Source: a virus (taxonomy: Duplodnaviria > Caudoviricetes). From it: a DNA stretch of 64,000 bases. Shown piece after piece: positions 46,353-46,418 of this stretch. The notes under the pieces are model-generated. The model saw only the letters and a list, made by a program, of their open reading frames with translations, had not been told where the DNA came from and did not search any database. The number at the start of each line of letters is the position of its first letter. Position 1 is the stretch's first letter. A program made the translations under genes and the position numbers. Location of the stretch: the IMG/VR virus record IMGVR_UViG_3300045837_000213, positions 1 to 64,000 of that record; one strand, given 5' to 3'.

Positions 46353-46418
46353 GGTGAGGCGGGGCAGGGTTCGGTATGGCGGGGCTTGGCGGTGGCCGGG
46401 CTTGGCGAGGCAAGGTCA
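46353..46418 (+). ncRNA. GGY-NN pentamer array 2
   Basis: ggtga ggcgg ggcag ggttc ggtat ggcgg ggctt ggcggt ggccg ggctt ggcga ggcaa ggtca. Confidence 0.85.

Follow-up and report, generated by a model that had tools for sequence, protein, structure and literature searches.

In VIPR (Viral Interference Programmable Repeat) systems, the Vipr protein polymerizes on a vrRNA with one protomer for each GGY/NN unit and hides the GGY, and the NN dinucleotides pair with double-stranded DNA in such a way that every third base of the target is skipped (bioRxiv 10.64898/2026.04.26.720920, 10.64898/2026.04.26.720927). The repeats form tandem arrays of about 9-16 or more units that lie on the strand of vipr, in the intergenic regions to either side of it, and the vrRNAs are RNAs of roughly 100 nt that co-purify with Vipr. 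Natural VIPR targets, which are called at a match of at least 80%, are mostly coding sequences with the skipped base on the wobble position, and the published surveys report no self-targets at this threshold (10.64898/2026.04.26.720920, 10.64898/2026.04.26.720927). Some vrRNAs are directed at competitors, either at their vipr genes or at their vrRNAs, and match self less well than non-self (10.64898/2026.10.15.759431; 10.64898/2026.04.26.720920). Some of the vipr-targeting guides of the SUSP1 family and P. fulva are placed close to the vipr 3' end, where they would block the genes downstream as well (10.64898/2026.10.15.759431; 10.64898/2026.04.26.720920). The published account describes VIPR types III and V as nuclease-linked, with an HNH-domain Vap in one type, and types II and VII as having a DNA-binding Vap (10.64898/2026.04.26.720920).

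The window analyzed here is a stretch of 64,000 nucleotides (positions 1 to 64,000) of the 93-kb IMG/VR virus record IMGVR_UViG_3300045837_000213. Each of the sequence-level features by which VIPR is recognized was found at one locus in this window. We consider it probable, with considerable confidence in the reading as a whole, that the cassette at 45625-46984 is a VIPR system in which array 2 is one vrRNA gene and is directed against the vipr of rivals. The features of the cassette and its surroundings are as follows.

45285-45605, + strand: HNH endonuclease gene 1 (106 aa), directly 5' of array 1; Pfam HNH, E = 4.7e-9
45625-46984, + strand: VIPR cassette (arrays, vipr, vap, and hairpin)
45625-45704, + strand: array 1 (vrRNA), 16 five-base units, of which 4 have a degenerate GGY
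45726-46349, + strand: vipr (207 aa, ATG at 45726), encoding a single-RRM RAMP protein; phrog_4652, no Pfam match
46287-46319, + strand: resident G-loop codons (DGRSVGFGRFS), an imperfect array 2 match (7/11 units, 16/22 bases)
46353-46418, + strand: array 2, 13 GGY-NN units, intergenic and 3' of vipr
46353-46408, + strand: array 2 guide units 1-11 (GA GG AG TC AT GG TT GG(T) CG TT GA)
46409-46418, + strand: last two units of array 2 (GGCAA GGTCA), a conserved 3' end and not guide
46428-46478, + strand: relic of the 3' end of a second vipr, directly 3' of array 2; 16 codons (ICFGRSTVEGFEFIDS) and a stop
46489-46570, + strand: array 3 (vrRNA), about 16 units, of which some have 6 nt or a degenerate scaffold
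46578-46874, + strand: vap, a 98-aa HNH accessory gene; PHROG HNH families, E = 8e-10, and a weak Pfam HNH match
46884-46948, + strand: array 4, a vrRNA array of 13 units (GGY-NN repeats)
46953-46984, + strand: hairpin and T-rich run; stem AAAGGGCGGA / TCCGCCCTTT, loop TGAAC, then CTATTTT

The four arrays (13-16 units each) are all intergenic and all on the + strand. A five-unit GGYNN pattern with one mismatch allowed had 24 matches in the window compared with 0.5 expected, nearly all of them within the arrays, and a six-unit GGYNN pattern had no match outside the four arrays in the whole 93-kb record. The hairpin that follows array 4, which was found by eye and not listed by a consensus scan, is likely the terminator of the operon. 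The protein encoded by HNH gene 1 is 29% identical to the conserved accessory HNH protein. An equivalent of this gene adjoining vipr was not found in the related loci, so it was rejected as a part of the system and may lie outside it.

Other candidate functions for the GGY-NN arrays were discarded. A TRAP-like or other multimeric RNA-binding platform, a G-quadruplex, and a terminase pac site were all dropped after the family profile matched a solved Vipr, as described below. Hammerhead or other ribozymes between the arrays were also rejected, as an Rfam scan of the region found no ribozyme or other Rfam family, the sole match being a sub-threshold RsmZ over array 4.

The neighbors of the cassette are HNH genes, small genes of unknown function, and tail genes. 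The cassette region is flanked by tail genes on the other strand and has a G+C content of 56% versus 64.5%. A block of lower G+C content (43131-47068), which comprises the VIPR cassette and small unknown genes (DUF2846, DUF1737) on the strand opposite to the tail genes, is situated between GTA-like tail genes, with NlpC/P60, BR0599, and DUF2460 on one side and a 1201-aa gene on the other. This arrangement is consistent with the block being an inserted moron.

In Class 1 CRISPR systems, Cas7 forms a RAMP backbone that polymerizes on the guide RNA, with a thumb that interrupts pairing at regular intervals, and virus-borne mini-CRISPR arrays provide viruses with guides that are used against close relatives. 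Unlike Class 1 CRISPR and mini-CRISPR, the window system is without repeat-spacer units, Cas1/Cas2, or contiguous 6-nt segments, and it has two guide bases per five-base unit. No CRISPR-type repeats and no repeat-spacer array are present in the window, so the locus does not classify as CRISPR-Cas, and neither adaptation genes nor genes for multi-subunit or large effectors were found among the genes neighboring the cassette.

The profile of the Vipr family, built from 20 homologs, matches a single solved structure, that of the SUSP1 Vipr protein (PDB 36pp_D, E = 3.3e-8). The profile alignment is local and covers the C-terminal 74 residues; equivalents of SUSP1 Vipr residues H17, the C173 region, D177, and R179 align in the family of the window protein, and those of H17, D177, and R179 are conserved. 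An AF2 model of the window Vipr, which is of moderate confidence (pLDDT 64), has the order beta-alpha...alpha-loop-beta with the G-loop between the last helix and the last strand, and the top Foldseek matches of this model are Csm3/Cas7 proteins (E = 5e-6, TM 0.44-0.54).

More than 1300 vipr homologs are found in metagenomes. We assembled a set of 37 viral contigs, which were retrieved with an alignment of twenty Vipr homologs. In nearly all of these 37 viral loci, GGY-NN arrays are located directly 3' of the vipr homolog and on the same strand, and in 80 of 88 loci vipr is followed, on its own strand, by a homolog of the HNH vap. The conserved order in this clade is vipr, array, vap, array, and an array just 5' of vipr is also present in close relatives. 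In relatives with an 83-84% identical Vipr, the arrays occupy the same places and have unrelated NN strings. Thus, the GGY is conserved and the NN hypervariable among related loci, and arrays other than array 2 gave only 5 cross-locus hits. Records of the clade come from Acidobacteriota, Armatimonadota, Chloroflexota, Cyanobacteria, Bacillota, and Chlamydiota, and are mostly viral contigs and prophage-like regions.

Individual loci of the clade vary in their composition. Both Cys pairs of the HNH zinc site are lost from the resident Vap and from those of loci L015, L050, L055, and L094; in these proteins C-Q-Y-P-x-G-K and C-R-M/T-H-H replace CxxC and the catalytic D-H...N...H residues are kept, and the other Vaps of the clade retain CxxC. 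When loci L055, L034, and L037 are compared with the window, Vap identity (68-71%) is higher than Vipr identity (57-63%), which is opposite to the usual trend, and there are hints of vipr/vap recombination among lineages. Loci L011 and L012 contain a second, distant vipr paralog (5937-6488, 29% identical) that has a SUSP1-like G-loop (GVGDFRP-RFGRF) and its own array (6508-6609), about 2.3 kb downstream of the first system, making this one phage with two VIPR systems from different clades. The arrays at L048:6150-6360 (equivalent to L049:716-930) have a GGA scaffold instead of GGY (in units such as GGATA, GGATT, and GGAGA), which is a variant repeat consensus; the L048 phage has a G+C content of 39%, a vipr that is 40% identical, and no HNH vap.

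The window system is like characterized VIPR systems in its single-RRM RAMP protein with a G-loop, its flanking intergenic GGY/NN repeats, its one small accessory gene, and its presence in a phage. It also shares with them the wobble-aligned NN dinucleotides with one skipped base and the lack of a self-target at a match of at least 80%. Unlike in the SUSP1 system, the accessory protein is a 98-aa HNH protein and not the DNA-binding vap1 product, the arrays end in GGCAAGG and not in a pseudoknot tail, some of the units have a sixth nucleotide or a degenerate scaffold, and the Vipr protein is only locally similar to its SUSP1 counterpart. By elimination from the published text, the window clade is probably the HNH-bearing VIPR type III.

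Array 2 parses into the units GGT-GA GGC-GG GGC-AG GGT-TC GGT-AT GGC-GG GGC-TT GGC-GG(T) GGC-CG GGC-TT GGC-GA GGC-AA GGT-CA. This parse exactly reproduced the NN string that a first-pass annotation of the sequence had read from array 2, and the gapped code proposed there, in which two bases are read and one is skipped, is the 1-nt skip rule that has been published for VIPR. Over all parsed arrays, the last units read AA in 35 of 110, and GGCAAGG is present at the 3' end of 45 of 110; the target matches of array 2 end after unit 11. Unit 8 has 6 nt owing to one extra T. Because the matches continue in frame past unit 8 in every good target, the extra scaffold base appears to leave the target register unshifted. 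Units 1-11 correspond to the first two codon bases of D-G-R-S-I-G-F-G-R-F-(D/E), with the wobble position skipped. Since these units would read the codons of the G-loop of Vipr itself, the intended targets would be the vipr genes of related phages and prophages.

The same annotation had noted a 7/10 match between array 2 and the resident vipr (gac ggc aga agc gtt ggg ttt ggc agg ttt, 46287-46316). We confirmed this match, and it is the sole site in the window with at least 7 of 10 units. Taken alone, the self-match of array 2 is within chance, as 12% of unit-order shuffles gave at least one 7/10 hit in the window, and the best 11-unit self-match in the whole 93-kb genome (16/22 bases at 46287) was equaled by 45% of shuffled guides. 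Four units are mismatched in the resident allele: Ser AGC versus TCN, Val GTT versus Ile ATN, the second Arg AGG versus CGN, and Ser TCC at unit 11. At 73% of the read bases, the resident match is under the 80% threshold for natural targets, and it might still be bound by the complex.

The best self-matches of the four arrays in the 93-kb genome are at 73% (array 1), 73% (array 2), 67% (array 3), and 71% (array 4), and no array had a self-hit of at least 18/20. The best self-matches of arrays 1, 3, and 4 are 19/26 at 42868 (42868-42906; equaled by 2% of shuffles), 20/30 at 50171 (50171-50214; 11% of shuffles), and 17/24 at 77999 (13% of shuffles), respectively. The array 1 and array 3 sites are within the genes for the tail tip and tape measure. 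As targets of these arrays the two genes are unsupported, the matches being well under 80%.

Comparison of array 2 with related loci gave a different result from that obtained with the resident genome. Within about 6.6 kb per locus, the best match of the guide lies on the vipr G-loop in 36 of the 37 viral loci. To extend this comparison, we used 63 non-redundant vipr alleles that were found by protein homology alone in viral contigs, GTDB genomes, and four look-ups of close relatives. The first-pass annotation had suggested an attack by the guide on conserved G-loop codons in the homologs of competing phages, and the alleles bear this out at the level of sequence, as the guide fits relatives better than it fits the resident gene: 42 of the 63 alleles match at 18/22 bases or more and 11 of 63 at 20/22 or more. 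When the guide was shuffled 1000 times and compared with the viral set, no shuffle reached 20/22, and the mean number of loci with at least 18/22 was 0.01-0.02, compared with 20 of 34 observed. The matches of array 2 range up to 22/22, and in all of them the reading frame is kept and the skipped base is the third of the codon.

The pattern GA.GG.AG.TC.AT.GG.TT.GG.CG.TT, which represents the first ten units, has 1 match in IMG/VR and 2 matches in JGI metagenomes. All three exact matches are in frame on the DGRSIGFGRF of vipr homologs, and two of them are from the same phage. A variant of this pattern with CG at unit 3 had 3 matches, all on vipr G-loops. Equivalent 10-unit patterns from arrays 1, 3, and 4 had no exact match in IMG/VR, so exact matches of this length are not expected by chance.

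The alleles also carry the codons that the guide would read. At the positions where the resident differs, relatives have Ser as TCN in 23 of 30 cases, Ile in 52 of 63, and the second Arg as CGN in 51 of 63. The guide has the commonest dinucleotide of the family at 10 of 11 units, the exception being unit 3, where it has AG and 51 of 62 relatives, the closest ones included, have CGN. Because of this disagreement, most relatives are 82-91% matches and not perfect ones. All ten units are matched by the alleles of L055, a Pyrinomonadaceae MAG, and L066, an Acidobacteria MAG; both alleles come from Acidobacteriota and were retrieved by homology alone. Given its G+C content of 63% and its identical vipr-array-HNH layout, the L055 type is a credible candidate for the natural opponent. 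The sole allele that matches at 11 of 11 units is that of L048/L049, which lies in a phage with 39% G+C, GGA-type arrays, and no HNH vap; this phage is unlikely to share a host with the window phage (64.5% G+C).

Targeting of the G-loop is a property of array 2 among the arrays that were compared. From 126 parsed arrays there were 32 strong cross-locus hits; 27 of these came from array 2, and all 27 were on the G-loop. For arrays 1, 3, and 4, there was no hit of at least 18/20 in the 80 sources (79 loci and the 93-kb genome). We therefore rejected the idea that anti-G-loop guides are general in the clade, since only 1 of the 126 parsed arrays hits vipr. Elsewhere in the clade, the arrays at L022:2511-2581 and L034:3622-3712 have reciprocal matches of 19/20 and 18/20, the former to L034:4920-4948 and L037:5205-5233 and the latter to L022:1107-1135. 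These gapped matches are between the first arrays of two related viral contigs and coding sequence on the minus strand of the other contig, and they look like mutual targeting by related phages.

From the above comparisons, the guide of array 2 is most likely aimed at the vipr G-loop of rival VIPR copies, with its own copy spared. The closest relatives, which have an 83-84% identical protein, match the guide at 17-19/22 compared with 16/22 for the resident. The resident value is low and not extreme, as 14 of the 63 relatives match at 16/22 or fewer. A unique Ser AGC codon in the resident was rejected, since 7 of the 30 relatives with Ser at this position use AGY; the combination of Ser-AGY with a second Arg-AGR is found in 1 of 30 relatives. 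As the phage that carries the guide also encodes an intact Vipr of this family, self-sparing must come from the codon choices of the resident gene. These comparisons make it suggestive rather than proven that the resident codon swaps reflect avoidance of self-targeting.

The RNA of array 2 could also be loaded by the Vipr of a co-infecting relative and turned on the rival's own gene, either instead of or in addition to loading by the resident Vipr. This route has precedent in the solo vrRNAs of satellites and VIPR-null phages, which redirect a foreign Vipr, and the GGY scaffold is common across the clade. A foreign Vipr is unneeded, however, because the window phage encodes an intact Vipr of its own. 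Loading by a rival's protein is unlikely, if the best placed of the alternatives, and the two routes are not exclusive of one another.

A third possibility is that the 16/22 match provides weak binding of the phage's own vipr, which would damp expression of vipr, the downstream arrays, and vap. The G-loop site is the best self-match of array 2 in the whole genome and lies upstream of three arrays and vap in one operon, and mismatches may be tolerated in this clade. On the other hand, a guide tuned to self should match the resident allele no less well than foreign ones, and the reverse was seen. The published surveys are without self-targets at 80% or more, with self-matches lower than non-self matches, and the vrRNA is in the mRNA sense, so that it cannot pair with the transcript. 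We consider autoregulation improbable on these grounds. The least probable alternative, and a very unlikely one, is chance resemblance, with the NN string having another target or none: the self-match is not significant by the shuffles given above and a G-rich guide meets a motif rich in Gly codons, but relatives fit the guide much better than the resident does and do so at its four differing units, 0 of 1000 shuffles reach 20/22 on the homolog set, and the exact matches in two large collections are all vipr G-loops when three control patterns gave none.

The motif that array 2 would target has a defined role in SUSP1 Vipr. In the cryo-EM structures of this protein, the first G of the scaffold forms a hydrogen bond with D177, the second G is stacked against W178, and the pyrimidine is held by R179, and replacement of D177 with alanine abolishes silencing (2026 VIPR preprints). 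In the profile alignment, D-G-R of the window Vipr aligns with D177-W178-R179, with G replacing W178, so the guide reads the codons of the scaffold-reading residues. The G-loop positions that it reads show little or no variation across the family. With the wobble base left unread, a target would gain nothing from common silent substitutions, and the codons indicate that escape would be possible only via Ser/Arg codon-family swaps or conservative replacements.

By analogy with the characterized SUSP1 and P. fulva systems, we infer transcription, processing, RNP formation, binding, silencing or cutting, and resident immunity at this locus. The operon would be transcribed from 5' of array 1 to the hairpin at 46953-46984, and array 2 would be released as a vrRNA with its last units (GGCAA GG..) as a conserved 3' end. 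Vipr would coat this vrRNA with one protomer per five-base unit and sequester the GGY, and the exposed NN dinucleotides would pair with one strand of double-stranded DNA with each third base skipped. The complex is predicted to bind the G-loop codons in the vipr of a co-resident or co-infecting relative. Because the vrRNA has the sense of the mRNA, its action must be on DNA and not on the transcript. Binding would block transcription of the end of the rival vipr and of everything downstream of it, including guides and vap; recruitment of the HNH Vap, if it occurs, might lead to cutting of the site instead.

The sequence directly 3' of array 2 bears on the history of the cassette. The relic at 46428-46478 scores 24.9 bits with a PSSM of the family C terminus, which makes it second of 127,924 six-frame positions; the real vipr gene scores 34.1 bits and the next best position after the relic 11.3. 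The relic starts at the Ile codon within the motif that array 2 reads, and its ATC, TTC, GGT, and CGC codons match guide units 5 and 7-9. Between vipr and vap, close relatives have a single array; the window has two, and the relic separates them. The simplest description of this sequence is that the locus is a recombinant of two VIPR cassettes, with its breakpoint in the 33-bp target site. The junction could conceivably be the scar of a guide-directed conflict, in which Vipr carrying array 2 together with the HNH Vap broke a rival vipr at the G-loop and the break was repaired against, or joined to, the cassette of the attacker, but we think this improbable. If it were true, an anti-vipr guide would be an RNA-guided homing or cassette-replacement device and more than a silencer. 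Finding a relic at the target site makes it worth asking whether rival cassettes recombine under the action of nuclease-linked VIPRs.

Earlier work has described VIPR, its code, and vipr-directed guides. The array 2 guide is like the vipr-targeting vrRNAs of the SUSP1 family and P. fulva in being wobble-aligned with the vipr of competitors and in matching self less well than non-self. The vipr-targeting vrRNAs that have been described in detail are solo and are found on phages that have lost vipr and vap1 and have no vipr of their own to protect. In the window phage, by contrast, vipr is intact and of the same family, the guide lies directly after it, and the targeted codons are specifically those for the residues by which the GGY scaffold is read. 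In addition, types III and V are presented in the published account as enriched in host defense islands and aimed at viruses, whereas the window guide appears to be aimed at another VIPR. What is new here is thus the HNH-linked environmental clade, a vipr-targeting guide in a phage whose own vipr, of the same family, is retained, a target that corresponds to the scaffold-reading G-loop, and the codon-family swaps of the resident gene.

Together, these results provide an independent, purely sequence-based confirmation of the two-read, one-skipped code of VIPR, and this confirmation comes from an environmental, HNH-linked clade that is far from the E. coli and Pseudomonas systems that have been studied. 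They also provide a clean natural example of a VIPR-positive phage with a guide against its family's own protein. With the G-loop as the target, a rival can hardly alter the residues concerned, and wobble changes cannot hide their codons. The only silent escapes from array 2 are Ser and Arg codon-family swaps, and the resident allele carries exactly those. The discrimination of self from non-self in VIPR thereby becomes directly testable.
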